Source: a virus. Taken from it: 21,215 nt of DNA. Below, piece after piece: positions 664-16,974 of the stretch. The stretch's first letter is position 1; each line of letters begins with the position of its first letter. The stretch lies in the UHGV virus genome UHGV-1726252, one strand, 5' to 3'. Both the position numbers and the translations under genes were made by a program. The notes under the pieces are model-generated. The model was not told the DNA's origin and did not search any database. It saw nothing but the letters and a program-made list of their open reading frames with translations.

Positions 664-3027
664 TTATTTGAATTTACGAATCAACAACTGAGTGATCCGC
701 ACCGTCCTGGCAATGTTTCTCGTTGCGTAAACTCCGCCAATAATCCCACCGCCGCAGAACTTCCCCTTCGTCCAGTCTCCCGTATAGTTCAGGACAGGGG
801 TGTCGATAGTCTCCCACCCGTCGTAGACCTTAACGGTCTGAGTTGTAGGCGAGGTTTTTTCGCAGCGGATGAGGAACTTTCTTGCCCTATCGGTGGGACT
901 ATAAACATCGTCTATCCCGGCCTGGATCTGAGGATAGGGAGCGGAACCCTGGTATGGATAGCGCAGCTGTAGCAGGTTAAATGTTTTCGACGTGGCATAC
1001 AAAAGCAGGCAATTATCCTCCTGATAATTATCTGCAGCTCCCGAGTTTCGGTTGAGGGACTTCCCGCCAAAGAAAAGAAAACCCGTATCCGTGTCGAAGA
1101 AGCCCTCAACCAGGATTTCAACTTTGTCACCTACCTGTCCAATATCAGCGCAGTTTGTGCCGTCAAACATCTCAGGATTCATGAACGCCACGCGGTTATT
1201 TGTGGCATCCGCCTCGAAGCGGAAATCGAGAGGCCCGGTTTTCTCCAGCGCATTCACCTGAATATAATTTGGCGCGCCGTAGTTGTTCACGTAGCCAAAG
1301 GTGTCCCTGGCCTTCCAGAACGGATTGAACTCAAACCAGCCGCCCCAGAATGCCCCGAGAACTGTCGCCGATGGCGCGATCACCTGGATACGGTTAAGCC
1401 CGTATTTCAACTTGGTAAGATAGAATGGACGGTCTGTCGCGTTGATGGCTGCTTCGTTCTCTCCGGTGTCCGGAAGCTCTTTATCGTAATAGGCGGAAGA
1501 GTTACCGAGTGAAAAGACCCTCACGCGCGGCAGCTGGTCGGCTGCATATGTAGATCCAATATTGCTGTTGCCAAAATTGCGGTATATCAGGGAATCCTGA
1601 TTACCCTCGCTCCACACGAAGAAGTCAAAGATAACCTCGCTCGCCACATAGTCTGCGGCCTGGATGTACCAGATCCGCGGGAACCGCGAGTATTTATATC
1701 CCTCCGACCCCGTATCAGGAACCCAGCTGGAATTGTAGTCCTTCGAATATCGCATCCGGCTGTCCATCCAGCAGATACGCTCAATATCAGTACCGTAGCA
1801 GCGAAGAATGTCAGGCATAAACGACTGAGCGACAAAGGACGCTTTCATCGCATGGCCAACGTCCCCCCAGTGCAGGCCGTCAGGCTGGAGTTCATACTGG
1901 TTGGAGTAATCGCTGTTTTTGGACATCCATGTTTTTTGCATGAAGTCCTGATCGATAATGGACACCCCCAGCACCTCCGCCATGTATTTTTTCGCGGCAT
2001 CGATCTGGGCTGCAGCTTCTTCATTGTCACGCCCGGAAGTACCAGAGTTCCAGCCGTTGTAGGAGCGCCAGTTTGCATCGCAGGTCGTTAGTACGGGTGT
2101 GGCGCCGGCTGCGATAACCTTCTTCATGACCTCGATTGTTTGCGCGATATGCTCGGTGATTTTATTTCCTGCGTCTGTAATATCGTTCAGCCCGAAGCTG
2201 ATGATCACGATATCCGGGTTAGAAGGAATATAGGGGTTTTGCAGGACGATTTTATCAAAGTAATAATTTACCCAGCCGTTCTGCATTTGCTGGCCGGAAT
2301 ACCCGGCGTTATAAACGCTAATGTTGTTGTTACGATGGTACTGCCGAAGGATTGTCTGCAGTCTGGCACACCATGCATTGGGCGCTTCTGCGTTATGGTC
2401 ACTGTTGGCCAGAGGTGCAGTGGCCCACGGGAAGCCAGTTACAGGCGTGGTGGGGTTTGCCGTCCACCCCGTGGAGCCATTACCATCACCGGTCGAATCG
2501 GCTATGCTGGTAATAATAACCGTCTCTCCGGCATGCATTTTTGCTGCCCAGTAATCCAGGGTTTTAATATGTCCCTGAAATAATGGTGCCGCAGCACTGA
2601 GAATTAACTGCCGAAGAGAGGCATCGCCTACGGAGACAAAATGGGAAGAGTCAGTTGTATCCCACGAAGTTTTTGTTGTCCCGGCTGTTTTATAAGGTGG
2701 TTTGGTACCAGCAGACAGCTTATAGAATTCACCGTCATAACGAATCAGCTCATTGTATTCAGAGACAGTAATTATGCCGTCTTCATAATCTCCAATTACG
2801 TCATAGCCCGCATTTTCAATAAAGGTGCGAAATCGCGTTTCCTGATCAGCTATCTGATTATTGAAGTCATATTCCATTCCACTCCACGATTTACGTATCC
2901 GACCCAGCCTGTCGGTCCATGTTTTGTTGGTAATTCCATTTACCGCCTGATCCAGGTTCTGAGCGTTATCACGTAAATCGCGTGGGTCAGTTGAACCCGG
3001 CGGGTTAAGAGTGTTGTATGGTGCCAT
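664..3027 (-). CDS. Tailspike / side tail fibre protein with a central SGNH (GDSL-like) esterase domain, a probable receptor-modifying (deacetylase-type) enzyme
   Basis: 787 aa from the ATG at 3027, which has GGAG 10 nt upstream. All four SGNH blocks are present in order: SIADSTGDG (Ser block), YNAGYSGQ (Gly block), ISFGLNDI (GxND), DGLHWGDVGH (DxxH). The N-terminal ~130 aa resembles conserved fibre attachment domains. The track ORF extends 15 codons upstream across a terminator and is not taken as real. Confidence 0.8.
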   Translation of the reverse strand: MAPYNTLNPPGSTDPRDLRDNAQNLDQAVNGITNKTWTDRLGRIRKSWSGMEYDFNNQIADQETRFRTFIENAGYDVIGDYEDGIITVSEYNELIRYDGEFYKLSAGTKPPYKTAGTTKTSWDTTDSSHFVSVGDASLRQLILSAAAPLFQGHIKTLDYWAAKMHAGETVIITSIADSTGDGNGSTGWTANPTTPVTGFPWATAPLANSDHNAEAPNAWCARLQTILRQYHRNNNISVYNAGYSGQQMQNGWVNYYFDKIVLQNPYIPSNPDIVIISFGLNDITDAGNKITEHIAQTIEVMKKVIAAGATPVLTTCDANWRSYNGWNSGTSGRDNEEAAAQIDAAKKYMAEVLGVSIIDQDFMQKTWMSKNSDYSNQYELQPDGLHWGDVGHAMKASFVAQSFMPDILRCYGTDIERICWMDSRMRYSKDYNSSWVPDTGSEGYKYSRFPRIWYIQAADYVASEVIFDFFVWSEGNQDSLIYRNFGNSNIGSTYAADQLPRVRVFSLGNSSAYYDKELPDTGENEAAINATDRPFYLTKLKYGLNRIQVIAPSATVLGAFWGGWFEFNPFWKARDTFGYVNNYGAPNYIQVNALEKTGPLDFRFEADATNNRVAFMNPEMFDGTNCADIGQVGDKVEILVEGFFDTDTGFLFFGGKSLNRNSGAADNYQEDNCLLLYATSKTFNLLQLRYPYQGSAPYPQIQAGIDDVYSPTDRARKFLIRCEKTSPTTQTVKVYDGWETIDTPVLNYTGDWTKGKFCGGGIIGGVYATRNIARTVRITQLLIRKFK

Positions 3028-3043
3028 TGTATTTCTCCAGCAT

Positions 3044-3066
3044 AAAAAAACCCGCCGGAGCGGGTT
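3044..3066 (-). terminator. Intrinsic terminator between the J-like gene and the tailspike gene
   Basis: Minus strand ACCCGC-TCCG-GCGGGT followed by TTTTTTT, ending about 15 nt before the tailspike SD. Confidence 0.75.
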
Positions 3067-3084
3067 ATGCAATTAAGGGTGTTT

Positions 3085-6000
3085 TCAGGAGACATCGCCG
3101 GGGTAGCTGGCGTCATCGTACTTATATTTATCGGGATGGTACTGAATGGCTGAAATACTGCTGGTCCCATCACCTCCGGGAGAAATCTCGCCAACCAGCG
3201 CGTCATACCCGACACGGGATGACGAACAGAACAGCAGGCGAGGCGGCTCAATGTACGGACTGTCCATCGCCCATTCTTCCGGTGCCAGCGCGGCGCTGTA
3301 TGGAATACGCAGGGTGTAATCATCGATGCGCGTCGGAACCTGCAGCGGCGACGCCCGGCCGTCCTGGTGGCGGATCACCACCCGCGGATTTGGAAAACTC
3401 CAGTCCGGCGGTTCGCTGACTGTCAGGGTGATCGCAGTGCTGTCCCATTCCATGTCAGTTATCAGGCAGCTCAGCGTCTGGTTGCCGGGAATGTCGTCAG
3501 TGAGGATGATCCGGTCCATAAACTGGTAGCACAGCGCATCCATTTCAGTGCTGGTCGTATGCTGCAGGCGCTGCAGCTGGTAGCCGCGCAAACGGCGCAT
3601 GCCAATGCGGTACGCCCGGTCCTGATCCACAACCCCCTCCAGTTTGTAATCTTCCACCTTCACTGGCGTAGAGTTTCCGGGCTGACGGCACTGTACGGTT
3701 TCTTCTGCCCAGGTCGTGCCGTTGATATACGTCACATCCACGCCGTCATAATCGTCCTGGCTCGGAGCCTTGAAGGCCGTCTGCAGCTCTTCAGTCGTCT
3801 CCTGGGGAGTGATCATCCCGGTCCAGTTTTTCACTCCTTCTCTCCCGGCGGAAACCAGTCCATCTGACAGAAGGAAGTATCCCATCCCTGCGCCGGTAAT
3901 GATTTTCAATACCTCGAGCGCAGACTTGCTGTCCCCGGTGGCCCAGTCGAACGTTTCCCCGCGGGGGGTCCACCAGGTCTGTTCGAGCGCGTCAATCGCT
4001 GCGCGGTCAATCTGTTCAGGGCGGAAACCCAGAGATTCCAGGACATGGTACAGCGCCCCGCTGATGCTGCGTGAAGGGTGTCCGTTATATAGCCGTGTGG
4101 GAATGACGTTAACGCGGCGATCGGACTGGGCCGCCAGTCGGTTACCGGTTCGTACCGTCAGCGCAAGAGTGGTCACGCCTGCATAGCTCCCCGGGCGTTT
4201 GCTCAACCGCGAGCGCATCGCCTGCCAGTAAAGGTTGTTCACCGTCCTGGCACCGCCAATTTTCGTCGTACGCCGCACGCGGACCTCATACTGTGCGGCC
4301 GGCAGCCCGCTGATGCGCCGGGTATAACCGTGGCCATCTGCGGTTTTGTTGGTGAAGTTATACACCACCTGCGACCAGGCTCCCGAAGTGGCTGCATTAC
4401 GGTACTGAACCAGCACCCGCACAGTATGCGACTGCGGATCCCCGTTCTTTTTGTACTGGATGTGGCCGTTGGGGAAAATGAAGTTATTTTCGATGGCCGT
4501 GGTTGTTTCTCCGTCCGGGCAGGCAAGGAAGGGGCCGAGCCAGGCATAATCATCATTCACGCCGGTGACCTGGGCATCGAGCAGCGTACGCTCGGTGAAC
4601 CCTGGCCATGCCGGATCCACGGTGACGACATCATTACCACTGGTGTCCTGGGTGACGACCACCCGCTCAACCGTGATGGTCTGATCATCAATATCGGTAA
4701 TGCGGAACTGGCCGTCGGCGTAGCCGATACCGATCCGCTGAACGCCATCAGGGATACCGGTGAAAGGCTTGCCTGTGGCATTGTCATACGCCAGCGTGAT
4801 ATTTGCCTCAACCGCCGCGGTACCGCCCGTCGAGGCCACCCCGGTAACATCTACCGTAGCGCTGCCGAATACGGAGACCGGAAGAGCGCTGTGACTGATG
4901 GCCCCCCCGGCAAACGGGCTGCTTTCCTCGGCAATCTGCAGCCGGCCACCAGTATCGCGCGCGATCAGGCCGGAACCGGTGAGCTGGTTTGATATGGTAT
5001 TAACCAGTCCGGACATCGTGACGTAACTGGTAATGAGTGAGATAGCATACGTCGTGCCTTTCCAGCCGATCGTGAACGTAACCGGCGTTGCCGTGAAATC
5101 GTACGTGGTGGGCGCGGCGCTGGCGGTAATGCTCGCTGTCGAACCACCCACCCCGGGCACCGCCGGAACGCCTGCTGCGTAACTGGCGATATACAGATCA
5201 TAAGCCGACTCATTAAACGTCACCGAGACAGGCATGCCTGCAGCTGGCCGTAGCTCAGCAACATCACCATAAATCACGCTGTACCCGCCGGCATTGGCAA
5301 CCCGGTAGGAGTTTGGTGCTACTACCGTGATTACTGTGCCAACAACCCAGGCCGCCGGGATCTCCGTTTCACCGTCGCTGGCCGTGGCCGCAATCAGGGA
5401 AAGAGTGTTACCGCTCACCAGAATGGCATCAGAGATGATACTGACCGTCTGCGGGCCGGTTGAGCCGAGGTCGAGGCCTGCGGTACCCGAAGTGGTATTC
5501 CCCACCTCGCCGCTGTTGAACCAGTTCTCGGAACGACTATCGGCCGCAACGCTGGCACCCGGTGGATAGATGGTGGCGCTGACATCACTGCCGAACGCGG
5601 ATGCTGGCGTGGAGCCAATGCGTATCGCCGACGCGGGCAGTGCCATGTCGCCCACCCCCACGCATAAAAACATGCTGGTCACGTATTTTTTGGGATCGGC
5701 GGAATCGAAGCGCGAAACCGGCTGGACGACGTAATCCGGCCACACCTTATAGCGACCAAATATCTCCCGGATGGGATCGCCCAGTTTTGCCATATTGGCC
5801 TTTGCAGGGTTGAGCTCGAGTTGATCCCCGTTGCCGGGCTGGCTGGCGCCGCCGGTCTGCATGGTGCTCATCATGTAGATGGAGTAGGCGGCAGAGGCGA
5901 CGGCTATTGCCACTGCCGTCCAGACCAGCCAGGCTGGCGCCGCCGGGCCAAACGGAACGGGATACAGGCGTACATCATCATCCGGTGCGATAATCTGCGC

Positions 6001-6177
6001 ACTCCACTCATTCGGAGGGATAGACACACCATTCAACTCCAGCGCCACCGGGTGGGTCATGTCAGGCTGCCAGCCCTGCACGTTTCTGGTGAACCAGTCG
6101 GCAATGGTGGTGCTGGCGTGCTGATGCGACTCCAGCGGTTCGCCTTCGATTCGGGAGGGATAAATTCGGATCGTCAC
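3085..6177 (-). CDS. Central tail fibre / host-specificity protein, lambda gpJ-like core with an extra N-terminal module and no lambda-type C-terminal receptor-binding domain
   Basis: 1030-aa ORF starting at a GTG that overlaps the K-like stop (GTGA), with GGAG 8 nt upstream. Residues ~110-700 show gpJ-like stretches (for example VRVLVQYRN...YEVRVRRTT against lambda RLLVQIQRN...FNIRMRRMT, from memory). The first ~75 aa end in YPVPFG and are followed by a ~25-residue hydrophobic segment. Confidence 0.8.
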   Translation of the reverse strand: MTIRIYPSRIEGEPLESHQHASTTIADWFTRNVQGWQPDMTHPVALELNGVSIPPNEWSAQIIAPDDDVRLYPVPFGPAAPAWLVWTAVAIAVASAAYSIYMMSTMQTGGASQPGNGDQLELNPAKANMAKLGDPIREIFGRYKVWPDYVVQPVSRFDSADPKKYVTSMFLCVGVGDMALPASAIRIGSTPASAFGSDVSATIYPPGASVAADSRSENWFNSGEVGNTTSGTAGLDLGSTGPQTVSIISDAILVSGNTLSLIAATASDGETEIPAAWVVGTVITVVAPNSYRVANAGGYSVIYGDVAELRPAAGMPVSVTFNESAYDLYIASYAAGVPAVPGVGGSTASITASAAPTTYDFTATPVTFTIGWKGTTYAISLITSYVTMSGLVNTISNQLTGSGLIARDTGGRLQIAEESSPFAGGAISHSALPVSVFGSATVDVTGVASTGGTAAVEANITLAYDNATGKPFTGIPDGVQRIGIGYADGQFRITDIDDQTITVERVVVTQDTSGNDVVTVDPAWPGFTERTLLDAQVTGVNDDYAWLGPFLACPDGETTTAIENNFIFPNGHIQYKKNGDPQSHTVRVLVQYRNAATSGAWSQVVYNFTNKTADGHGYTRRISGLPAAQYEVRVRRTTKIGGARTVNNLYWQAMRSRLSKRPGSYAGVTTLALTVRTGNRLAAQSDRRVNVIPTRLYNGHPSRSISGALYHVLESLGFRPEQIDRAAIDALEQTWWTPRGETFDWATGDSKSALEVLKIITGAGMGYFLLSDGLVSAGREGVKNWTGMITPQETTEELQTAFKAPSQDDYDGVDVTYINGTTWAEETVQCRQPGNSTPVKVEDYKLEGVVDQDRAYRIGMRRLRGYQLQRLQHTTSTEMDALCYQFMDRIILTDDIPGNQTLSCLITDMEWDSTAITLTVSEPPDWSFPNPRVVIRHQDGRASPLQVPTRIDDYTLRIPYSAALAPEEWAMDSPYIEPPRLLFCSSSRVGYDALVGEISPGGDGTSSISAIQYHPDKYKYDDASYPGDVS

Positions 6178-6728
6178 TTATAGAACTCCACTTTGACGTA
6201 CTGCCGGAGAAATCGGGCCAGAGGTAATATGGTCACGTTGCGTTTAGGGTTAGCCTCGAGGACGTGCAAAGCGCCATTAACGGTGACGGCGATTCCCAGA
6301 TGCGTTACTAGTCCCGCGGTATAACACGCCGCTACCGCACCCTCTTCTGGCTCGCATTTTTCGATACTGCTGAGGAAGCCGTTGCAGGTGTCATTCATCT
6401 GAGAGCCTTCGTTAATAACACCCTCAAAAACAGGCCAGTCCGGCAGACCTAGATCGCGCCTCACCTCATGAATTACGCCATAACAGTCGAGAACCGGGTA
6501 ATCGCGGCCGCCCATCTGCCATGTAACCGAGAGGTATTTTTCAGGATTAAACCGACCTTCTCTGGAGGATGAATTCATTTTTGAGGCGTTTGATAAGCTC
6601 ACCATTCGGCTCCTTAATCTCTTTTCTTCCTCTGCTCGTGTGATGAGATCAGGCTGGTCGTGACATTCATGGTGGATATTACGAGGATTCTCTGACGGCA
6701 GCGGATTTCCGGTATTGTATTTAGCCAT
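6174..6728 (-). CDS. Tail tip assembly protein, gpK-like NlpC/P60 peptidase lacking the JAB/MPN domain
   Basis: 184 aa with an NlpC/P60 Cys motif (VLDCYGV, compare lambda K TDCYTLF as recalled) and downstream His residues (VTHLGIAV, ALHVLE). No ExxGxLxG or HxHx7SxxD JAB motifs in the N-terminal 75 aa. ATG start; stop overlaps the J-like start. Confidence 0.7.
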   Translation of the reverse strand: MAKYNTGNPLPSENPRNIHHECHDQPDLITRAEEEKRLRSRMVSLSNASKMNSSSREGRFNPEKYLSVTWQMGGRDYPVLDCYGVIHEVRRDLGLPDWPVFEGVINEGSQMNDTCNGFLSSIEKCEPEEGAVAACYTAGLVTHLGIAVTVNGALHVLEANPKRNVTILPLARFLRQYVKVEFYK

Positions 6729-6737
6729 AATGATTTC

Positions 6738-7226
6738 CTACTGCAGGTAACGAAGTCCCGGGAAGTCCGGCAGCGTGTAACGGTAGCGCGGCCATGACGT
6801 ATCGAGAATGTTCATGTAGCCGGCGGTGATCTGCACCTCCGTTGCTGTCCAGGAACCCTCTTTAATCGCGAGGGTGAACGGGGGAGCTGCGGGTGCTGAC
6901 AGATCGGTGGAGACGTACCGTCGAAAGGTCAGTGATGCATTGCTCAAATTGTCGAGCGCATTACGGATCGCCGTTGATACAATGCCGTCGATATTGCTGA
7001 TGGCGAATTTTAGATCCTGCGTGCCGTCGGCGTTGCGCGCTGGCAGCGCCACATCAATGGCAGAACCGGTGAATGTCGCCTCGCTGCCCGTTTCCAGGGT
7101 AACAGTTATGTCATCCCATCCGCGGGTCAGCCAGTAATCCTGACCACCAACGGTGATTTGTAGCGTGTCCAGGATGACCTCATCACCACCGGATGCGTAA
7201 AGCCGGTTGAGAACCGCACTGGTCAT
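6738..7226 (-). CDS. Tail tip protein, gpL-like N-terminal domain, Cys-free
   Basis: 162 aa from the ATG at 7226 (AAGGAG upstream; ATGA overlap with the M-like stop). VILDTLQITVGGQDYWL resembles lambda gpL VVLWEIDLTEVGGERYFF as recalled. The track start at 7238 is a GTG with no usable SD spacing. Confidence 0.6.
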   Translation of the reverse strand: MTSAVLNRLYASGGDEVILDTLQITVGGQDYWLTRGWDDITVTLETGSEATFTGSAIDVALPARNADGTQDLKFAISNIDGIVSTAIRNALDNLSNASLTFRRYVSTDLSAPAAPPFTLAIKEGSWTATEVQITAGYMNILDTSWPRYRYTLPDFPGLRYLQ

Positions 7227-7684
7227 GCTTCGGGCCACTCCTTATTCAGCGCCAGATCGATAATGTCAGAACCAGCCACCATCTCGGGAAATAATCCCCA
7301 ACCTGGCGGCAATAGTGGCCGTTCCCACAATTCCAGCGTTGCGGTAAATTGCCAGAATTTACCGCTTGCCAAAATTGGGCCCTGATAAATATCTACAAAA
7401 CGACACTTATAAGGTTGAATCCCCAAAGGAGTTTTAAGGCGCATATAAAACCAGGCAACACCATCTGTAAGAGCGTCCCGAAACCATGCCTCAAATAACT
7501 GGGCTTCATTATCTCTCTTAAATGACCATTTCACGCTCGCTTGCGTAGGAACCGAGCTATAAATTCGGCGTTGCCTGGAACGGCCTGAGGTTAATTTGGT
7601 ACGAAGAAAAGGACTTATGGGCTCGAGCCCAAAACCATCTTTTAATGGGATCGGTAATTCTTTAGGGTAGAAAATATCAGCCAT
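7223..7684 (-). CDS. Distal tail protein, gpM-like
   Basis: 153 aa immediately after the tape measure gene, with a start/stop overlap (TAATG). Weak pattern similarity to lambda gpM. Base composition is clearly more AT-rich than neighbouring genes. Confidence 0.5.
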   Translation of the reverse strand: MADIFYPKELPIPLKDGFGLEPISPFLRTKLTSGRSRQRRIYSSVPTQASVKWSFKRDNEAQLFEAWFRDALTDGVAWFYMRLKTPLGIQPYKCRFVDIYQGPILASGKFWQFTATLELWERPLLPPGWGLFPEMVAGSDIIDLALNKEWPEA

Positions 7685-10377
7685 TATCTAGCCTTCCTTT
7701 TTGCGTACATAACATTAACCGCGTCATGAACTTTCCCCTGCCCTTTCGACAAGCTATTTACGACCATGTCAAAGCCCTGGGTCGCCCCGCGTTTCACAGC
7801 CGCTTCCATCATCGCAATTGTACGTGCATCAGGATCACCATTAACCTGAATGGTTGGTGAATAATTGAATTGACCCTGCATTGCGTTATTTTCACGTTGT
7901 TTTTGAATATCGGTGAGAGTCGCATCCAATTTTGCTGAGGTATTAGACTTAACGACTCGCTCTCCTTGTTGAAGCAACCAAGTCCCCGTCGCTGGAACCT
8001 TATCAAGACCATCGTGAGCCATACCCATCAGAGAGGCGGCTGATATGGCCGCAACCATTGGCGATGTTACTGCCGCAGCCGCAGCCATCGCAGCGGGTGC
8101 GAGCGCTGGCCCCACGATAGGGATCGCCGCAGTAGAAGCGTAGGCATTTAATTGGGCCATTAATGCACTGGCTGTGGCATTGCTGGTCATTGCGGCTGCG
8201 GCTGAAGCTTGGGTGCCTTTACCAACCATTAGCTGAACAGCCTGGTAAACGAGCCATTGAGCAGCCATTTGCGACAGGGTCTGAATAACCGTCTCGCCCA
8301 TGCTGGAGAACATATTCCCGAATGCATCACCGACAGATTTCGCTTGGGTGATAATTCCGCTAAAAGCATTAGCCATTGAATTAGTTGTTTGATTAAGTAA
8401 CGAAGATGCTGCGTTAGCAGCCGTCAGGTTATAGTTAGAAGCTTCATCGGCGAAATTCGCCATGGATGTTAAGGCACCAGCCTGCCAGTTCTGCCTGATC
8501 GCATCCTGCTGACCGTAGTAATTCCTGAGCGCGGTCAACTCATTCTGATAGCCTTTATCGCTTTCATTGCCGCCCGAATTTTTCCAGCCCTGAAGGAGTT
8601 GGGCCTCTTCAAGACGGCGCTGTGCCTGACGACTGCTCATGCCAGCACTATCGGCCAGCGCGCGGGTTTTCTCACCCATCTGGGTCACATATTTCTGAGA
8701 TGAGTCCTGCAGGCGGTTGAGGCGTTCCTGAATGACGATCTGATCTCCCAATCCGGCATTGATCTCCGCCTGGGCGAGCACCTTGTCTTTGCTGGCGAGC
8801 ACTGATTTTTCATCATCAGTGAGTACGCGATTTTTCGCAGCTTGCTCGAGTACAGTGAATTTGGCCTGCTCTTTCCATAACTGCTGCCGCTGCAGGCTGA
8901 TCTTGTCGTTGATTCCAGTATGCTGCCGTAAAACCTCCAGTTGAGTTTGCAATTCCAGAGTCTGAGCACTGGTACTGTCGGTAAGCTTCGTTCCACCCGG
9001 CGTCCTGACTTTCGTCGGTTTCTTCAGCGAGTCCTCATATTCCTTTCTCGCCGCGGCCAGATTGATGTTGTAATCAGCCTGAAGGATCCTACCTTCTTTC
9101 AACGCTTTGTTCAGTTCGTTCTGGCGATCGGTGTACTTCTCCAGAGCCGTCTGCGATTTGCTGTAATTCGCCTGGGCCTGTTGCGCGTACTTGAGGCGAT
9201 CGGCTTCCAGTCCTGCCTCACGGGTAGCGCTTTCCTGGGCGAGTTGAGAATTGCGTGCCTGTTGCTGCGCCATATCCAGCGCCTGGCGGGTTGTCTCACG
9301 GTCATTCCAGAAGCGGGCGCGCGCTTCATCGTTGACATAACGATCGCCCTTTCGCAAATCCCAGATTTCATCCGCCCGCCTGAAGGCCGCCTCTGCCTTG
9401 CTCAGCATTTCCTGAGAGGTATCCGGCCTGCCGATATCCAGCGCCGCATCCCACATGGATTTAAAGGCATTTTTCAGAGAGTCCGCAGCGGATTCAATCG
9501 AGCCCATGTTGTCGCGGATACTGGCAGTCTGCTTGTTGAACCCGGCGGTTGCTGCTTCGTTTGCCGCCTGTAGAGCCCCTGCTTCATTTCCTGAGCGCTG
9601 CAGAGCGGCAACATATTCAACCTGTTCAGCCGTGACATTGTGAAACTGCTGCGCCATCGCCAGCAGCCCTGACGCCGGATCGTTGACCATGCGTCCAAAT
9701 GCTTCGGCCACCTTATCGACCGGCAGACCGGATGCATCTGTGAATTTCGCAACCGAGATCGCAAGCCCTTCAAAGTTAGCACCCGCGCGAACGCCAGCGT
9801 TAACTAGTGCCGTCAATGCCTGACTGGTCTGATTGAAAGTTAATCCCGCTTTTTCGCCGGCTGCTGCAATAGTTTGCATACGGACTGCAGTGAGCCCGGC
9901 AGTGTTCCCGGTGAGCACCAACGTTTTATTGAATTCGGATAATGTACTTGATCCCTGATAGTACGAGTACATCAGCGCCGCGGTGCCAGCGGTTAACGCA
10001 CCAACGCCCAGCATTACAGGTGAGATTGAACTGGCAAGACCAACCAGCATTGGTCGAATCCCGCCAAACATGTCTTTTACCTGCCCGCCCTGCTGGAGCA
10101 GAATCAGCCAGGGGTTCTGCCCCCCTGCTAACTGTGTGGCAACATCCGTAAACTGTGCAGGCAACATGCGCATAGCATTGCTGTACTGCCCTACGGACAA
10201 GCCCGCTCTTTTTGCTGCTACTTCATGGCGGGTAAAGGACTTTTGGACCTGAAGGGCAGCGTCATTTGCGGCCTGACCAGTGCCTTTGAGCTGCTTATTT
10301 ACACGATTAACCTGCTCCGTGAATTTAGTCGAATCAACATCCAGATTTACTATCAGGTCACCCACTGACTGGGCCAT
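7684..10377 (-). CDS. H: Tail tape measure protein (gpH-like)
   Basis: 897 aa, Ala/Gln-rich with long predicted helical stretches and a hydrophobic Ala/Gly-rich segment near the C-terminus. Sits after G/T and before the tail tip genes; its start overlaps the T ORF end by 20 nt. Confidence 0.9.
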   Translation of the reverse strand: MAQSVGDLIVNLDVDSTKFTEQVNRVNKQLKGTGQAANDAALQVQKSFTRHEVAAKRAGLSVGQYSNAMRMLPAQFTDVATQLAGGQNPWLILLQQGGQVKDMFGGIRPMLVGLASSISPVMLGVGALTAGTAALMYSYYQGSSTLSEFNKTLVLTGNTAGLTAVRMQTIAAAGEKAGLTFNQTSQALTALVNAGVRAGANFEGLAISVAKFTDASGLPVDKVAEAFGRMVNDPASGLLAMAQQFHNVTAEQVEYVAALQRSGNEAGALQAANEAATAGFNKQTASIRDNMGSIESAADSLKNAFKSMWDAALDIGRPDTSQEMLSKAEAAFRRADEIWDLRKGDRYVNDEARARFWNDRETTRQALDMAQQQARNSQLAQESATREAGLEADRLKYAQQAQANYSKSQTALEKYTDRQNELNKALKEGRILQADYNINLAAARKEYEDSLKKPTKVRTPGGTKLTDSTSAQTLELQTQLEVLRQHTGINDKISLQRQQLWKEQAKFTVLEQAAKNRVLTDDEKSVLASKDKVLAQAEINAGLGDQIVIQERLNRLQDSSQKYVTQMGEKTRALADSAGMSSRQAQRRLEEAQLLQGWKNSGGNESDKGYQNELTALRNYYGQQDAIRQNWQAGALTSMANFADEASNYNLTAANAASSLLNQTTNSMANAFSGIITQAKSVGDAFGNMFSSMGETVIQTLSQMAAQWLVYQAVQLMVGKGTQASAAAAMTSNATASALMAQLNAYASTAAIPIVGPALAPAAMAAAAAVTSPMVAAISAASLMGMAHDGLDKVPATGTWLLQQGERVVKSNTSAKLDATLTDIQKQRENNAMQGQFNYSPTIQVNGDPDARTIAMMEAAVKRGATQGFDMVVNSLSKGQGKVHDAVNVMYAKRKAR

Positions 10378-10666
10378 AGCGCACTCCTCCCAGGCTTTCC
10401 GCCGCAGACATCATCACATCGTCATCCATCGGTAAGGTATCCTGCTCAGGTGGGTTAAGCAGGCTAAAATCACGGGGCGTAAATTCGGCTTTTGAACACA
10501 GCATTGAAACCATAAGATGGCTGAGACGGGAGAAATGGGTGTCCAGAAGATCGCCTTCAAAATACTGCTGCTGATAGTAACGCCCCCATTCAGCCAGCTC
10601 GGACGATGACATGCCGGCAAGCATGACGCGCCAGTCGGGGCGCCGAAACTCGCGCGCCAGCTTCAT
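10358..10666 (-). CDS. T: Tail assembly chaperone T segment, probably expressed only as a G-T fusion by -1 frameshift
   Basis: ORF in the -1 frame relative to G (from track coordinates). By my reading the frame stays open upstream across the 3' end of G. The position matches lambda G/GT. Confidence 0.65.
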   Translation of the reverse strand: MKLAREFRRPDWRVMLAGMSSSELAEWGRYYQQQYFEGDLLDTHFSRLSHLMVSMLCSKAEFTPRDFSLLNPPEQDTLPMDDDVMMSAAESLGGVRYGPVSG

Positions 10667-10686
10667 TACAAAGCTCAGCTCACCGG

Positions 10687-11097
10687 CTAATGCTTTTCCG
10701 CGCTGATGGGCTCGTCTTCCGTCACTACGTCTGTACTTTTCTCTTCGTCCGCCGGTACCGGTTCCGATACAGGGATCATGTCAGAAAGCGTTTTCACAAA
10801 AAGTTCGCCAGCGCCAATCATTCCCGGCGGCCAGCCGGACAGCACTTCATAATGCAGAGAATCGATCTCTTTAGAGGTGTCCCCCTGCCATAGCGATAAC
10901 GCGATCACCATCGCGCCGCTCCGGAGATTGCTGCTAACCCGTAACGGGAGATATCCCTCATCACCTTCGTCTTTCGGCAATGTTTTTTCTTCCTTCGCCA
11001 GGTATTGCAGATATTCAATACGTTGCAGGCCAGACAACTCAAACAACTGGATGGTGCTGCCGTTATAGGTGAACGGCTCAGATTTCAGAAAGCTCAT
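10687..11097 (-). CDS. G: Tail assembly chaperone G
   Basis: 136 aa; N-terminus MSFLKSEPFTYNGSTIQLFELSGLQRIEYL closely resembles lambda gpG (MFLKTESFEHNGVTVTLSELSALQRIEHL as recalled). Acidic C-terminus. Confidence 0.85.
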   Translation of the reverse strand: MSFLKSEPFTYNGSTIQLFELSGLQRIEYLQYLAKEEKTLPKDEGDEGYLPLRVSSNLRSGAMVIALSLWQGDTSKEIDSLHYEVLSGWPPGMIGAGELFVKTLSDMIPVSEPVPADEEKSTDVVTEDEPISAEKH

Positions 11098-11137
11098 GGA
11101 GTACTCCAGGAAAATGACGGGGCCAGCGCCCCGCCTG

Positions 11138-11875
11138 TCAGGAAACGGTGACTTTGCAGATCGCGACTTTCAGCCCGTCGTTGGACATCACGATAATTTC
11201 AGCAGCGCCTGTGGCTACGCCGGTGATGGTCAGGACATCGCCGTTAGCAGTAACTGTCGCTTTCGCCGGATCAGAGGAGGCAACACGGAAAGATTTGTCT
11301 GTAGCGCCAGCAGGGTTGACAGTAACGTTAACGGTGTCAGACGCGCCGGCGGCAACAGTCAGGGTTGCTTTATCAATCGTCACACCGGTAACCGGCACGA
11401 CAGGCGCGCGCGTTTCTTCCGCCAGCGATGGCTTGCCGTTGTTGCTGATCTTCACGCTGCGGGTAATGACTTCCTTCGCCGGGATGGTTTTACCGAGGCT
11501 GCTGACCCACCCCTTAAAGACGTCGATCGTCCCGTTCGGGTATTTAATTTTGTAGGCGCGCACGGCGCCGCTATAGAACCAGTCCACCAGAGATTGCTGC
11601 CCTGATTCACCCGGCTTCCAGGCCAGGGTGAAACTGGCTTCACCGGCTGACTTCTCCCCCTGCGCTGTGTTTGCCCAGTCTGCATTCGGATCGTCAAGGT
11701 AGGTGTCGTCATAGGACTCTGCGGTCAGTTCACCTGGCGTCAGGTCTTTGATTTTGGCCGTACGGGTCCAGTCGGTGTCACTGGTCGGATTGGCATAAGG
11801 GTCGCCTGAGCCGTTGTAAATCCAGAACGTTGTGCCTGCCCCTTTTACGGGCTCAAGCGGGTTCGGTGTTGGCAT
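11138..11875 (-). CDS. V: Major tail protein V with C-terminal Ig-like (Big_2-type) domain
   Basis: 245 aa. Near-colinear similarity to lambda gpV ([30 protein letters not shown]..., [34 protein letters not shown]). GAGG SD upstream. Confidence 0.95.
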
Positions 11876-11882
11876 GTTTACC

Positions 11883-12281
11883 TCACATTACGTATGAAAT
11901 TGAGTATTTGAGATCAGCCGATCCCCATGTCGCCATTTCGTCATCGCGCTGATAGTCATAGCCCTGAGCTGACATGGTTTCGATTAAGGGGAAAAGGCCG
12001 GGGAGTGCGTTAAGCTGGGGATAGATTTTGCTTTCCATCCAGGTATCCAGCGCTGTATCCGTTTCGCTCGCTTTCAGGAACACCTCGATATGAAGCGTGG
12101 CGCGCCAGATATCTTCGTCGATGGATTCCTCCGTGGACTGCGCGTCAGTGATATAGACGGCGACAGCAGGGAGATCTTCGGACTCAAGTACAGCGGGACG
12201 GCCATCAGACCACGTTACAGGATCGGTAATGCCAGCTTTCAACGCATCCAGAACCGCCAGGCGGATCAGTGGATGTTTCAT
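11883..12281 (-). CDS. U: Tail terminator protein U
   Basis: 132 aa; strong similarity to lambda gpU (MKH...AVLDAL, DGRPAV, PAVAVY, LHIEVFL, WMES.IYP, GYDY.RDD). ATGA overlap with the Z stop. Confidence 0.95.
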
Positions 12282-12832
12282 TTGGTCAGGATTATCCTCA
12301 GTTGATTGCGTAAGGCCGCTGAGAGCTCTTTCGGAAGATCCGTTGCCGTCAGGCGGGTGCTTTCCTGCTTGAATGCCTCCGTCAGCGGTACCGCCAGAGG
12401 AATGCTCACCACCTCGAGCGGGTAGCGGCTTTTGGTGGTTCTCCGTAGGACATGCCAGCGCCCGTTTTTGAGCTGCTGAATGAATCCGCCCGGGAAGCGA
12501 AACCGCCCGATGACCAGAACGCTTCGGACACCGGCCTTGTCACGTTTTCGCCGGGAAAGACGCACGCTGGCCACGCCCAGCTTGATCGCCGGGAGGTTGC
12601 CCCGGTTGACCCGAATAGTGGCCTGCGGTTTACGTACCGTGGCTTTCTTCAGGCGTGCACGCTGATTGACGAGTTTTCGCTGCACCCGGGTTTCCTTCGC
12701 AACCTGACGGGTGCTGCGGGAGATGGCCCGGGTGGCCACACGGTTCACCGCCTGAGAGGATGCACGTGGCACAGCGGTTTTGCTGATGCTTTCCAGGTTA
12801 GCGATCGCCTGTTCGAGCCCTTTAATGGACAT
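12278..12832 (-). CDS. Z: Tail completion protein Z
   Basis: 184 aa from the ATG at 12832 (GGAGG 5 nt upstream). MSIKGLEQAIANLESISKTAVP and FIQQLKNGRWHV match lambda gpZ as recalled. The track ORF has a 58-codon upstream extension with no support. Confidence 0.85.
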   Translation of the reverse strand: MSIKGLEQAIANLESISKTAVPRASSQAVNRVATRAISRSTRQVAKETRVQRKLVNQRARLKKATVRKPQATIRVNRGNLPAIKLGVASVRLSRRKRDKAGVRSVLVIGRFRFPGGFIQQLKNGRWHVLRRTTKSRYPLEVVSIPLAVPLTEAFKQESTRLTATDLPKELSAALRNQLRIILTK

Positions 12833-12842
12833 AGAGCCTCCA

Positions 12843-13118
12843 TTACTCAATCCAGATCTGTGGCTTACCGTTGAACAACTGTTTGCGGGTAACGGTGTAG
12901 TCCTGGCCCTTCCAGTGAATGACATCGCCTTTGCGTGGCGACACTGCCGGGGAGAACACCACCAGTGACAGGCCATCCCCCACCAGCGGCCCCATTTCTG
13001 CGACAAACTGGCTTTCTACAGCATCAAAAATGACCCCGTTGATCGTGACTTTATCCGCCATCAGATTGACGGTGGCCGCGTCCATACGGGCCACCATCGC
13101 GTCGAAGGGATTAGCCAT
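12843..13118 (-). CDS. Head-tail joining protein, gpFII-like
   Basis: 91 aa from the internal ATG; MANPFDAMVARMDAAT resembles lambda FII MADFDNLFDAAIARADET as recalled. Position between head genes and Z. Start overlaps the end of the preceding gene. Confidence 0.65.
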   Translation of the reverse strand: MANPFDAMVARMDAATVNLMADKVTINGVIFDAVESQFVAEMGPLVGDGLSLVVFSPAVSPRKGDVIHWKGQDYTVTRKQLFNGKPQIWIE

Positions 13119-13434
13119 TAAGCTTAACCAGTACGGCGGCGGCGTTCGCACCGGCAGCCTGCCAGGCTTTCCCTGCGGGGGTCGCGCCGGTGGCCTCCAG
13201 TTGCACTTTCCCGCTTTTGAAGTAAACGGTCTTGCCCTGGGCGATATCATCCGCCGCCAGCTTCGGCAACTGGACTACGCCACTGGTGAGGCCCGTACCA
13301 GTTTCGCCGACGGCAATATCAGCGATAGCGATCGCCAGAACATCCCCAACGGCAACCGGCGTGCCACTGGCAATCACCGCCGACCCCGAGTTGGTCAAAT
13401 CGATAGTGTGACCATCCTGTACGAAATTCTTCAT
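13111..13434 (-). CDS. Small Gly/Ala-rich head protein, putative capsid decoration/cement protein (paralog A)
   Basis: 107 aa from the ATG at 13434, with GGAG 7 nt upstream. First gene after the capsid gene terminator. Clear paralog of the ORF at 20020-20361. Confidence 0.5.
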   Translation of the reverse strand: MKNFVQDGHTIDLTNSGSAVIASGTPVAVGDVLAIAIADIAVGETGTGLTSGVVQLPKLAADDIAQGKTVYFKSGKVQLEATGATPAGKAWQAAGANAAAVLVKLNG

Positions 13435-13442
13435 GAGCTCTC

Positions 13443-13466
13443 CGTATGGCCCCTGCCGGGGCCATG
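13443..13466 (-). other. Stable 8-bp hairpin in the 5' leader of the decoration-like gene
   Basis: Minus strand ATGGCCCC-GGCA-GGGGCCAT, a perfect inverted repeat with no following U-tract, lying between the capsid terminator and the SD of paralog A. Confidence 0.5.
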
Positions 13467-13475
13467 TTGCAGATA

Positions 13476-13498
13476 TAAAAAAAGCCCTTACGGGCCGG
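13476..13498 (-). terminator. Intrinsic terminator immediately after the protease/capsid gene
   Basis: Minus strand GGCCC-GTAA-GGGCT (GNRA-type loop) followed by TTTTTTTATAT, about 20 nt after the stop at 13515-13517. Confidence 0.7.
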
Positions 13499-13514
13499 TT
13501 CAATGTCGGGGTGA

Positions 13515-15461
13515 TTACTTACCGGATGATTTCGCCAGGCCGCGATAATCCAGCGGCGCCACACCAGCATCGATGCGGACTTTCGTCGCAACACCATCAG
13601 TGGTGAAACCTTCCTGCTGGTCGATGTACGGGGCATCAATGCCATTGAGGTACGCCACTTCGATGGTATCGGTGCCCTGTGCGGCAGCCAGATACCAGGC
13701 CGCCGGGTCGGCGTCATCCAGACGCGCTTCTGCGATCACTTCGGCAAAGTTCTGCAGCGGGTTCACCACGCCGGCATTGATATCAGCCCCTTTCACGCTT
13801 GCTGACTTAATGGTCTGGCTGGCTAATGTTTCCAGACCCACCGGAACCAGCATGTAGGCCGGACGAATGTTCAGGGCGCGCTCGCCCTCTTTCTGCTTGC
13901 GCATGTTCTGGCGGGCCTTATCCAGGCTGTCAACGCTGATGGCGCCAGCTGAAAGGTTGGCATGGTCAGCATGGAAGAGCGCCTTGCCATCTGAAAGTTT
14001 CCCGTTACCGGTCAGCACGGCGTAGACCAGGTCACCGATAGTGGCTTTTGCAGCGCGGCCCATCTTCATCGGAACGTCAGTCAGCTGGTTCAGGTCATCG
14101 TTGATAATGGCCTGGCGGGTGATGGAGAAGATCTCACCGTAAGTAGCCAGCGCGATGGTTTCACCCTTATCCTGCGTGGTGATGTACTTATACTCCGCGC
14201 CCTCTCGCACCTGACGCAGGGACGGGAAGCCCCCCATGCCGACGCGATGCGCCGTTTTGAAGTCAGAGAGCTGGCCTTTTTTGGTCCAGAGTTCAAAGGT
14301 CTCTGCCGCTTCATCCCAGCCCTGCAACAGCGCTTTGTTGGCGACATCGAGCAGGATATTGCCAAAATCGGAGGTGCTGTGCGTCAGCGCAAAACCGACC
14401 ATCTGCATCGGGTTGTAACTGGAGACCCCGATGCCGCGCTCGGTCAAGGACATGCGGGCGTATTCGCGCAGCGTCATACCGTTATAGACGTTGTCACGCT
14501 CAACATTTTCATAACCGGCACGCGCCATCAGCGCCTGGCGGATCCCGTCGCCAACAAAGTTACCGTTCCCGGCATACACATGGGCCTGCCCCTGCGTAGT
14601 GGTGTTGGACGGCGTGGCATTTTTACCGAGCTCTGCCAGAAGAACATCTTTCGCCTGGCTGACCGAGCACTCTGGATCGGCAATACATTTAGCCTGCAGC
14701 TCCTGATGCTTTCCGCCGAACATGGCGAAGAGATCCTGAATACCGTTCACGCGTGCCTTTTGCTCCGCAATAACCTGCGCACGGATATCAGTTTCGCTGG
14801 CACCTGCCGCCGGAGCCGGCTGGGTGACAGTTGGCTGCTGTGTTTCGCGCGTAGCGGTATTGCGCGGCGGGGTGACCATGTTGCGAATGCTGTTTGGCAT
14901 CTTTTCAAATTCCTCAATACGTTTCGAATGGATGCAGGCCATTGCCTGCAAGGATGGTGTGACCTGGTCAGCGAAGCCCAGCTCCAGACATTCAGTGCTG
15001 GAGAGCCAGGTCTCTTCCTCCAGCATTGCCGCAATTTCTTCGGTGCTTTTTCCCGTCTTCTGCGCGTATGCCGGGATCAACACCGACTCCATTTTGTCGA
15101 GCAGGTCGGCGTAGTCGCGCATGTCATCAGCATCACCACCCGCAAAACCCCACGGCTTGTGGATCATCATCATGGTGTTTTCCGGCATGATGACCGGGTT
15201 TCCTACCATGGCGATGACTGATGCCATTGAGGCAGCCAGACCGTCGATATAAACGGTGATCGCCGCGCCGTGGAATTTCAGGGCATTAAAAATGGCGATA
15301 CCGTCAAAGACATCGCCACCAGGGGAGTTGATATGCAGTTTGATGTGGGTGACATCGCCCAGCGCCTTAAGGTTTGCGACGAACTGCTTCGCCGTTACCC
15401 CCCAGTAGCCGATCTCGTCGTAGATGTAGATTTCGGCTTCGTTTTCCGAACTGGCCTGCAT
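13515..15461 (-). CDS. Fused prohead protease (ClpP/S49-like) and major capsid protein (HK97-fold type)
   Basis: Single ORF. N-terminal ~200 aa carry a ClpP/S49-like serine protease signature (EIYIYDEIGYWG, HINSPGGDVFDG, GLAASMASVI, MIHKPW). A Pro/Ala/Gln-rich linker follows, then a ~330-aa capsid-like C-terminal region. Start uncertain: ATG at 15461 (11 nt after the portal stop, chosen here) or ATG at 15545 (overlapping the portal 3' end). The track extension to 15806 is rejected. Confidence 0.85.
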   Translation of the reverse strand: MQASSENEAEIYIYDEIGYWGVTAKQFVANLKALGDVTHIKLHINSPGGDVFDGIAIFNALKFHGAAITVYIDGLAASMASVIAMVGNPVIMPENTMMMIHKPWGFAGGDADDMRDYADLLDKMESVLIPAYAQKTGKSTEEIAAMLEEETWLSSTECLELGFADQVTPSLQAMACIHSKRIEEFEKMPNSIRNMVTPPRNTATRETQQPTVTQPAPAAGASETDIRAQVIAEQKARVNGIQDLFAMFGGKHQELQAKCIADPECSVSQAKDVLLAELGKNATPSNTTTQGQAHVYAGNGNFVGDGIRQALMARAGYENVERDNVYNGMTLREYARMSLTERGIGVSSYNPMQMVGFALTHSTSDFGNILLDVANKALLQGWDEAAETFELWTKKGQLSDFKTAHRVGMGGFPSLRQVREGAEYKYITTQDKGETIALATYGEIFSITRQAIINDDLNQLTDVPMKMGRAAKATIGDLVYAVLTGNGKLSDGKALFHADHANLSAGAISVDSLDKARQNMRKQKEGERALNIRPAYMLVPVGLETLASQTIKSASVKGADINAGVVNPLQNFAEVIAEARLDDADPAAWYLAAAQGTDTIEVAYLNGIDAPYIDQQEGFTTDGVATKVRIDAGVAPLDYRGLAKSSGK

Positions 15462-15471
15462 ACGGAACCAG

Positions 15472-16974
15472 CTATTTTTTGCCTGGGCTTTCGGGCGGTT
15501 CTTTACCCGGTTTTGCTTCCTGGACACGAGTGTCTCCTTTGTCATTTGCCGGGTCGGTATCAAACACCAGCCCCTGTTTACGGTTCTCGTCAACCTCCGC
15601 CTTACGGCGGCGCTTAACATCATCAGGATTTGCGCCGCGGGCGCGCACCCATTCACTCTCTGTCGCAGCACCGCCACGCAGCAGAATTTTCCAGGCGTTC
15701 GCCTCTTTGACCGGGTCAATCCAGGGCATAACGGGCCCGGAGAACACGGCGCTAAAGAGCGTGGCTTTATCGACATTTTTCGGGACCGTGATCTCGCCTG
15801 AAGCAATCGCCATCCTGAGCCAGGCCCGGTACATAGGTCGTGTGATCGCCGCGATGAATGCGTCCTGAAGAATGAAATAGCCTTCGGTTGACTCCACCAG
15901 CTCCTGGCGCTGCGCGCTGTATGTTCCGTCGTAGTTACGGGCGATACTTGAAAAGCTACCGCGCGAACCAGCGGCTACAGCACGTAGCTGGCTATTACGG
16001 AAAGTTTCGAGGTTGGGATTTGGTCGGTCTGACTTGATCATGCCGATGTCTTCACCCGGGCGGAGATCGTCAAACAGCATGCCGGGCTCGATGTTTAGCT
16101 CCCTTTGACCGCTGCTGCCTTCGTCATAAGTCTGGCCATCACCTTTTTTAATGAACATGCCCAGTGCCGCAGCAATGCGGGCAGCGGTCAGTTCGGCGTC
16201 CTCGTACTCCTTCAGCGCCGAAAGACGCATCAGCACCCCGGCAAGCAGTGAGTTACCCCGGATTTGATGCAGGCGGCGCATGAACTTCAGGTGAAGCATA
16301 TTCTCCGCCTGAATATCCTTGGTATCTCCCTGGCGCATGCCTTCCGCCGGAAGGTTTTTGTAGACCATGTATCGGGTCGGGCGGCCCCAGTCATTCAGGT
16401 AAATGCCCTGGCATAACTTCTGACCCGGCTCTGTCCGCTCCATCGGCACAAAATCCGGTTCCAGAGCCTCAATCCAGAAAGGAATGTCTGCCACCGGCGA
16501 CAGACCGTTCCCGGTGCCACTGACCAGCTGCGCGAACACCTCGCCGTCACGTAACCAGGTCCGGCACATCAGGCGCTCAAGCACTGGTCGGGTAAACTGC
16601 CCGGTAACATCGGGAGAAACGGACCACTCCGCCCATTTGGCGCGGATCTGTGTAGCAAGGTCAGTAGCGATGCCCCCGTTACTCATCAGGGGCTGCGGCT
16701 CCACGATGATGCCTTTTGCCCCCACAATGCGCTCTTCGAGTTTATCAAGGAGGCCGATCACCAGATCGTGGTTACAGTCAAGCCACCGGGCTTGTTCGCG
16801 CAGCGATCGCCCGCCGAATTGCGTCAACTGATTCGCGGAGCGGTTTTCGCGTTTTGCCCGGTGCGTCCGGGTAGGAATGACAGCCTCATATGCCTGGATC
16901 ATCAGGCGCGACTTCAGGCGCTCCGCTTTCCAGCCCGGGGAAAACATGCCTATCAGATTATCCAGGGCGCTCAT
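15472..16974 (-). CDS. Portal protein (lambda gpB family)
   Basis: 500 aa, located between W and the protease/capsid gene. ATGA overlap with the W stop. Basic/acidic C-terminal tail. Confidence 0.9.
   Translation of the reverse strand: MSALDNLIGMFSPGWKAERLKSRLMIQAYEAVIPTRTHRAKRENRSANQLTQFGGRSLREQARWLDCNHDLVIGLLDKLEERIVGAKGIIVEPQPLMSNGGIATDLATQIRAKWAEWSVSPDVTGQFTRPVLERLMCRTWLRDGEVFAQLVSGTGNGLSPVADIPFWIEALEPDFVPMERTEPGQKLCQGIYLNDWGRPTRYMVYKNLPAEGMRQGDTKDIQAENMLHLKFMRRLHQIRGNSLLAGVLMRLSALKEYEDAELTAARIAAALGMFIKKGDGQTYDEGSSGQRELNIEPGMLFDDLRPGEDIGMIKSDRPNPNLETFRNSQLRAVAAGSRGSFSSIARNYDGTYSAQRQELVESTEGYFILQDAFIAAITRPMYRAWLRMAIASGEITVPKNVDKATLFSAVFSGPVMPWIDPVKEANAWKILLRGGAATESEWVRARGANPDDVKRRRKAEVDENRKQGLVFDTDPANDKGDTRVQEAKPGKEPPESPGKK

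Follow-up and report, generated by a model that had tools for sequence, protein, structure and literature searches.

A gpJ-family tail-tip hub with a gpI-type module fused to its N-terminus: a further member of a known prophage architecture

The virus genome UHGV-1726252 is a stretch of 21,215 nucleotides (the window, in what follows) in which the minus strand is the coding strand of every gene. One of these is an open reading frame (ORF) of 1030 amino acids (aa) at 3085..6177 (-), which begins with GTG and encodes a J-like tail-tip hub protein (baseplate hub 2, or TipJ family) that carries a fused gpI-like module. We consider it very probable that this protein is a gpJ-family hub holding the whole gpI module (tail assembly protein I, or TAPI) in cis at its N-terminus, and that it works by the mechanism proposed below. 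An earlier note on this DNA had put forward such a fusion. The proposal is supported by the modelled beta-grasp fold of the N-terminus, by matches of relatives to ThiS and Lambda_tail_I, by a same-order alignment with the C-terminal part of gpI and by a published precedent (PMC1779556). Iyer, Burroughs and Aravind 2006 (Genome Biol 7:R60, PMC1779556) identified the ubiquitin-like (Ubl) domain of the lambda and T1 tail assembly protein I, and reported a TAPI-TAPJ fusion beside a JAB-less NlpC/P60 K protein and a beta-rich protein 'Z'. The hub described here shares with those prophage fusions (PMC1779556) an N-terminal ThiS/MoaD-like Ubl domain, a K protein of the NlpC/P60-only kind and 'Z' (here a DUF1833 protein), and nothing substantive is different. 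Our analysis confirms that the fused architecture is real, common and already known since 2006; the hub is one more member.

The junction between the two genes can be read directly. As the earlier note had it, the J-like ORF begins at the stop of the K-like gene in a GTGA: on the reverse complement the K-like ORF (6174-6728) ends ...TAT AAG TGA and the hub ORF (3085-6177) opens GTG ACG ATC, an overlap of 4 nucleotides. The GTG start is supported because homologues of the hub open with the same MTIRIYPS... residues, and among the matches listed the module match begins at residue 1-3 in nearly all of 150 cluster representatives.

The first part of the module, residues 1-77 (5947..6177, -), is a ThiS/ubiquitin-like beta-grasp domain that ends in YPVPFG (residues 72-77), which agrees with the N-terminal module of about 75 residues, ending in this motif and followed by a hydrophobic stretch, that had been described. 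Structure prediction of the N-terminus, suggested at the time as a check, gives a beta-grasp: AlphaFold2 (AF2), with a 70-sequence alignment of the module (A1) as input, models residues 1-75 confidently (predicted local distance difference test score, pLDDT, 92-97) with beta-beta-alpha-beta-beta-beta topology. Foldseek ranks ThiS entries of the PDB at the top (3cwi, 2k5p, 1zud, 2lek and 1f0z; target-normalised template modelling (TM) score 0.53-0.70), followed by MoaD, Urm1, SAMP and ubiquitin. When relatives were scanned individually, 24 of 70 matched Pfam ThiS (PF02597; best expectation value (E) 1.6e-7) and four of the 70 weakly matched Lambda_tail_I (PF06805; best E 3.7e-3). The A1 profile gives weak matches in the PDB to ThiS chains and to the T1 gpI homologue 9l9p_A, and a fragment of a close hub homologue carries the JGI label 'sulfur carrier protein ThiS'. 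Features given for ThiS, MoaD and TAPI (PMC1779556) are a Thr or Ser that precedes helix 1 and a Gly with which the domain closes. Both occur here: T24, before helix 1, is the majority residue in the family, and a Pro-x-Gly closes the domain (P75 in 78 and G77 in 61 of 95 relatives).

Sulfur carriers of the ThiS/MoaD type (PF02597) are the nearest fold and sequence relatives of residues 1-77, and the domain looks nearer to ThiS than to lambda gpI. This likeness is one of fold and ancestry, not of function. Unlike ThiS and MoaD, the hub domain is internal, its chain running into a helix after G77 with no free C-terminal Gly-Gly, and it sits in a phage-tail context without E1-like or thiazole/molybdopterin synthase partners. 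A sulfur-carrier function was rejected, given no partner genes (no ThiF/E1-like, MoeB-type or sulfur-transfer genes occur in the window) and no free Gly-Gly.

Next along the chain is a hydrophobic Ala/Val-rich helix, residues 78-105 (5863..5946, -), the counterpart of the lambda gpI hydrophobic helices H1/H2. Residues 78-103, PAAPAWLVWTAVAIAVASAAYSIYMM, are the most hydrophobic stretch of the whole hub; ten of its 15 highest 19-residue Kyte-Doolittle windows fall within residues 74-106 (maximum 1.72), and AF2 places a helix at residues 82-105. A hydrophobic low-complexity segment after the beta-grasp is a feature of TAPI, and it is kept in 75-90 of 95 diverse relatives. In 75 of the 95 the best 17-residue window reaches a Kyte-Doolittle score of at least 1.6, and in 59 the best hydrophobic window has no charged residue.

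The third part, residues 106-170 (5668..5862, -), is a gpI-C-like segment. Conservation within the module peaks here (G117, N128, G141 and P147, invariant or nearly so), and residues 116-166 pair by BLASTP with lambda gpI 169-219 (E 7e-4), a region which in the lambda structure threads through gpJ by beta-augmentation just after the gpI plug. An hhalign comparison of the family profile with a gpI profile returned a single alignment in the same order, from Ubl through hydrophobic stretch to C-terminus (E 2.3e-4). With a hidden Markov model (HMM) of the family TAPI-C region, gpI homologues scored a median of 4.1 against -1.3 for shuffled sequences; these scores are low but clearly above the shuffled controls. 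For residues 106-170 the pLDDT is about 60 when the module is modelled in isolation and 78-95 in the AF2 model of the full length, a gain that fits packing of the segment onto the hub. Residues 106-170 probably form a plug and beta-strands that pack on the hub. Their homology to TAPI-C is likely, not proven, and the signal is weak.

Several observations weigh against equating the module with gpI. The hub N-terminus itself gives no match to PF06805 or PF02597 even at E up to 10, so the PF06805 match expected of a TAPI was found only in relatives, while lambda gpI, as a control, matches PF06805 at 1.1e-28. Direct sequence similarity of the hub to lambda gpI is weak; gpI does not rise above background with the family Ubl HMM; and stand-alone gpI was not returned by fold searches of BFVD or the PDB. 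The hhalign probability was only 20-45% with a shallow gpI profile (effective number of sequences, Neff, 1.8): all sequences in the gpI alignment were at least 69% identical, and the profile-profile evidence stayed weak because that alignment was too shallow. The hub has one Ala/Val-rich helix, whereas gpI has two Gly-rich ones, and in about 20% of relatives (JBD44 and Sf11, for example) the helix is amphipathic rather than fully hydrophobic. Finally, the beta-grasp of the hub of phage Sf11 (gp14, residues 1-80), whose structure is available, is simply not seen.

A rival reading makes the N-terminal domain an independently recruited ThiS-like domain whose likeness to gpI is convergent, or the fusion an annotation or sequencing artefact. 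We regard this as highly improbable. The similarity to ThiS is indeed clearer than that to Lambda_tail_I, and the failure of the Ubl HMM to detect lambda gpI points the same way, but the gpI Ubl domain is itself a ThiS/MoaD relative (PMC1779556). Moreover, gpI is matched both in the succession of the three parts, from Ubl through hydrophobic stretch to conserved C-terminal strands, and in the place between K and the hub, and the window is devoid of the sulfur-transfer genes already mentioned. A frameshift or annotation artefact was rejected, as the ORF is uninterrupted and is conserved in hundreds of clusters and in phage genomes.

The gene order also speaks for a gpI module in cis. In lambda a separate gpI lies between K and J, as the earlier note stated and as a check of the lambda gene order confirmed; here the gpI-like module occupies the position between the K peptidase gene and the hub, within the hub ORF. 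The claim that no separate I gene exists holds for the window: HMMs of the family Ubl, of the family TAPI-C and of lambda gpI, run against its stop-to-stop ORFs in six frames, picked out nothing significant apart from the hub N-terminus (E 2.1e-30 and 6.8e-23). Beyond the hub, the gpI HMM scored best at 18514-18681 (E 0.039), a site within the terminase gene but not in its frame, and this match was dismissed as noise. Related phages, whose K/I/J order was to be surveyed, tell the same story: D3 and JBD44 share the gene order and likewise lack an I gene, and both these Pseudomonas phages, like Shigella phage Sf11, carry the four-gene tip cassette without it.

The partner gene at the K position (6174..6728, -) encodes a papain-fold (NlpC/P60-like) protein, assigned by its homology to JBD44 gp36 and by PHROG 329. 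It is homologous to the NlpC/P60-only proteins of JBD44 and D3, of 135 aa; with JBD44 gp36 it shares 39% identity over its residues 62-184 (E 4e-28). The NLPC_P60 model is matched by JBD44 gp36 (E 0.09) and D3 orf25 (E 0.04), both weakly, and by the corresponding Sf11 ORF (E 1e-8); the K-like protein itself shows a weak Peptidase_C92 match. A Pfam search found no JAB domain in the K-like protein, so the JAB-bearing K partner of TAPI is not seen here, while lambda K, run as a control, matches both NLPC_P60 and Prok-JAB. As a separate observation, the K-like ORF has 184 aa from its first ATG, the JBD44 gp36 homology starts only at residue 62, and no domain is detectable in its N-terminal 60 residues or so; translation may really begin at an internal Met, M42 or M51.

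Three known tail tips allow the fused module to be placed. Lambda gpI (PF06805; PDB 8IYK and 8XCG) has the same order of parts, that is, a beta-grasp, a hydrophobic helical segment and a C-terminal strand region. The difference is that gpI is a separate polypeptide of 223 aa whose partner gpK bears JAB and NlpC/P60, whereas the hub module is fused and its K protein is JAB-less. The 2006 paper (PMC1779556) took TAPI to be absent from the mature tail, which later cryo-electron microscopy corrected: gpI is part of the virion and forms a trimeric plug in the lumen of the tip that holds the tape measure's C-terminus; it has two transmembrane helices by prediction and an N-terminal domain that was not resolved, and its insertion into the outer membrane on opening of the tip is a published proposal (PMC10721106, PMC11101478, PMC12617516).

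Sf11 gp14 (baseplate hub 2; PDB 9OCC chain E, PMC12724387) is the second case, with the same Ubl domain, hydrophobic or amphipathic segment, strand segment and hub, and with a shared gene order of distal tail protein, DUF1833, NlpC/P60 and hub. It matches the module profile at E 7e-13 over residues 6-156. It differs in length (828 aa), in its identity to our hub (about 15%) and in its amphipathic, Lys-containing segment, and Sf11 itself is a virulent phage with P22-like tailspikes. Residues 81-827 of gp14 were modelled in the virion tail tip, and residues 1-80 are absent from the map and undiscussed (PMC12724387). Order in the chain starts inside the hydrophobic/amphipathic segment, and the beta-grasp is invisible. 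In the Sf11 genome (MF158038) we also noticed an unannotated ORF of 165 aa at 4577-5074 (+ strand of the locus), which matches NLPC_P60 (E 1e-8; 35.5 bits, above the gathering score), sits between gp16 and gp14 and overlaps the start of gp14. It follows that Sf11 has the same cassette of DUF1833, NlpC/P60 and Ubl-hub. On the opposite strand, gp15 as annotated (58 aa) is a probable miscall.

The third case is T5 pb3 (PDB 7ZHJ/7ZQP), in which a plug/membrane-insertion element and the hub share one polypeptide, as is proposed for the hub family, and whose hub fold is related to our model (Foldseek E about 2e-8). There, however, the plug is inserted inside HDII and is not an N-terminal module, and no beta-grasp is described for pb3. 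The authors of the lambda structure equated L, I and the N-terminal part of J with the single pb3 polypeptide (PMC10721106). Taken side by side, gpI as a separate protein (lambda, T1), as an N-terminal fusion (the hub family, D3, Sf11) and as an internal plug (T5 pb3) supports the idea that siphophage tips are built from the same parts with different cuts.

The identities of the domains, the gene fusion and its conservation are established, as is the absence from the window of a distinct I gene and from the K-like protein of a detectable JAB domain. By analogy with the lambda, T5 and Sf11 structures, we infer a location in the lumen, a plug role, membrane insertion and a chaperone role for the respective parts of the module. 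The strand segment (about residues 106-170) would pack by beta-augmentation on the hub domains of its own chain. The three hydrophobic helices of the trimer would lie in the tip lumen, below the tape measure's C-terminus, closing the tube. On receptor binding the hub would open and release the helices, which would insert in the outer membrane and start a conduit for the DNA. The beta-grasp would be a flexible appendage, probably chaperone-like, by which the hydrophobic helix is kept soluble while assembly proceeds.

The helix invites another interpretation, in which it is not a lumen-buried helix for use at infection but a transmembrane anchor in the producing cell that tethers the nascent hub to the inner membrane, where tip assembly would start with the Ubl domain on one side. 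In most relatives the helix, of 24-26 residues, is uncharged and highly hydrophobic, and it lies near the N-terminus as a signal anchor would. Yet the equivalent gpI helices are found inside the tail-tip lumen of the mature lambda virion (PMC10721106, PMC11101478), order in the Sf11 chain within the tip sets in with the second half of the segment (PMC12724387), and the amphipathic, Lys-containing helix of about 20% of relatives is unfit as an anchor. We therefore judge an anchoring role to be very unlikely.

The invisible Sf11 beta-grasp bears on a further alternative, which we find doubtful. Here the beta-grasp would be a pro-domain, cut at the Pro-x-Gly (G77) during or after tip assembly, perhaps by the neighbouring papain-fold K-like protein in the manner of a deubiquitinase, and the mature hub would start at the helix. 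The cut is assigned to the NlpC/P60 K-like protein because no JAB domain is present. Several facts fit: the conservation of the end Gly and of P75 (in 61 and 78 of the 95 relatives, as above), the translational coupling of the K-like gene to the hub gene through the GTGA overlap, the retention of an NlpC/P60 gene beside the hub in D3, JBD44 and (unannotated) Sf11, the absence of gp14 residues 1-80 from the map (PMC12724387), and the proposal of Iyer et al. that TAPK's peptidase domains process TAPI (PMC1779556). The missing density is, however, equally explained by flexibility, as in the N-terminal domain of lambda gpI (PMC11101478); G77 is absent in 36% of relatives and so not invariant; and tail NlpC/P60 proteins are usually taken as peptidoglycan hydrolases. 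In its most specific form, with the coupled NlpC/P60 protein cutting the Ubl domain from the hub at Pro-x-Gly and the freed helix then being loaded into the tip lumen, we rate the idea as unlikely. Were it true, it would provide a viral or prokaryotic counterpart of papain-type deubiquitinases, with a Ubl-fusion precursor as its substrate, and would give the K-type protein a proteolytic role in assembly, instead of or besides cell-wall hydrolysis. JAB-less fused hubs are a convenient system for asking whether the Ubl domain is cleaved.

Beyond the fused gpI-like module, the rest of the protein is a gpJ-type hub. The earlier note let gpJ-like sequence begin directly after the helix, which does not stand, as gpJ/TipJ models match only from residue 555. 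Residues 171-554 (4516..5667, -) are a family-specific beta-rich region, covered by PHROG 469, within which the hub domains start and inserted domains lie; they give no Pfam or NCBIfam match and are confidently predicted by AF2 as beta domains. We also observed that these roughly 380 residues are much shorter or absent in relatives of 828-910 aa (Sf11 gp14, JBD44 gp37). The gpJ/TipJ-related hub core follows at residues 555-1019 (3121..4515, -), where NCBIfam NF040662 matches at E 3e-127 (425 bits, cut-off 140). Pfam FNIII-A_GpJ spans residues 558-656; PF24801 scores above its cut-off (50.1 bits against 27) and PF13550 just below (22.4 bits against 23).

Over its full length the protein matches PHROG 469 end to end (E 1e-234), and its AF2 model has a pLDDT of 87. 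The best structural match by Foldseek is Sf11 gp14 (9occ_E, E 8.6e-42), with lambda gpJ (8xcg_J, E 1.8e-24, target-normalised TM 0.63) and T1 (9l9p_S, E 2e-20) also found, as well as the T5 pb3, JBD30, chi and RcGTA hubs. The full-length profile, searched against the PDB, matched Sf11 gp14 (E 1e-58) and lambda gpJ (8iyk_J, E 3.8e-9), whereas the single full-length hub had no PDB sequence match. Lambda J residues 122-185 and 393-595 align colinearly with the hub core by BLASTP. Only about residues 119-600 of lambda J are covered by hub alignments; the C-terminal central fibre and receptor-binding domain (lambda J about 600-1132) are not present, and the protein ends with the hub. Because of this restricted match the 1030-aa protein is a hub, not a fibre, and the label 'fibre' given to it earlier is a misnomer. 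Separately, the gene after the hub (664-3072, -) encodes an 802-aa tail fibre or spike whose N-terminus matches tail-fibre PHROGs and which has a central GDSL/SGNH esterase domain (residues about 192-409). The host recognition absent from the hub may come from this protein, as a receptor-modifying (deacetylase-type) fibre.

The fused architecture is widespread, with Pseudomonas phages D3 and JBD44 and Klebsiella prophages among its carriers. The hub N-terminal 109 aa alone match PHROG 469 positions 2-107 (E 1.5e-20), and an exhaustive HMMER search with residues 1-210 against 1.84 billion cluster representatives found the module in 548 clusters (50% identity) at E up to 0.001. Nearly all long matches carry the module at residue 1-5 of proteins of 800-1480 aa, and short matches are mostly fragments. 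Since the module is in PHROG 469 and in 548 clusters, the fusion is a family feature and not a local oddity or chance. Structural matches in BFVD are likewise to proteins of 781-1483 aa named 'Tip attachment protein J'. With the N-terminal 158 aa as query, a word-indexed homology search yielded gene fragments only, and so is uninformative on stand-alone versions. Close homologues (58-90% identity) are abundant in genomes of Citrobacter, Enterobacter, Klebsiella, Escherichia and Yersinia; at the nucleotide level, no match was found in the phage collection.

Given so many sequenced members, the 1030-aa hub adds nothing beyond them, and its practical value lies in annotation. Residues 1-554 are without a Pfam or NCBIfam model, and many copies are named 'kinase' or just 'TipJ family'; the names that homologues bear in databases are 'host specificity factor TipJ family phage tail protein' and the mistaken 'kinase'. 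The gene adjacent to the hub is entered in Klebsiella prophage records as 'nitrite transporter' or 'formate/nitrite family transporter'. Both the 'kinase' and the nitrite-transporter names look like propagated misannotations.

Upstream of the K-like gene, the tip cassette continues with a DUF1833 protein (6738..7238, -; PF08875 E 5e-43, PHROG 396), which is baseplate hub 1 in the lambda L position and probably the beta-rich protein 'Z' of Iyer et al. Sf11 gp16, in the same position, is BH1P and has a weak DUF1833 match. A distal tail protein candidate in the lambda M position (7223..7684, -; PHROG 384 E 3.7e-56) shares its position with JBD44 gp34 and D3 orf21, and is followed by a tape measure protein of lambda type (7684..10377, -; PF06791, PF09718, PHROG 24).

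The window is a mosaic prophage late operon, in which (7223-19291, -) a lambda-type head and proximal tail are joined to a tail tip of D3/Sf11/chi type. On the lambda side are a gpA terminase, a lambda-family portal, a ClpP-capsid fusion, gpZ, gpU, a gpV-like tube protein with a Big_2 domain, gpG/gpT chaperones and the tape measure with its lambda-type C-terminal domain. The tip that is not of lambda type comprises the PHROG-384 distal tail protein, DUF1833, the small papain-fold K-like protein and the hub, and then the GDSL fibre or spike. The capsid ORF, of 763 aa (13515-15806, -), combines a ClpP-type protease (residues 112-283) with a major capsid domain (residues 463-760), a protease-scaffold-capsid fusion which we take to be of the kind reported for Gifsy-2-like prophages.

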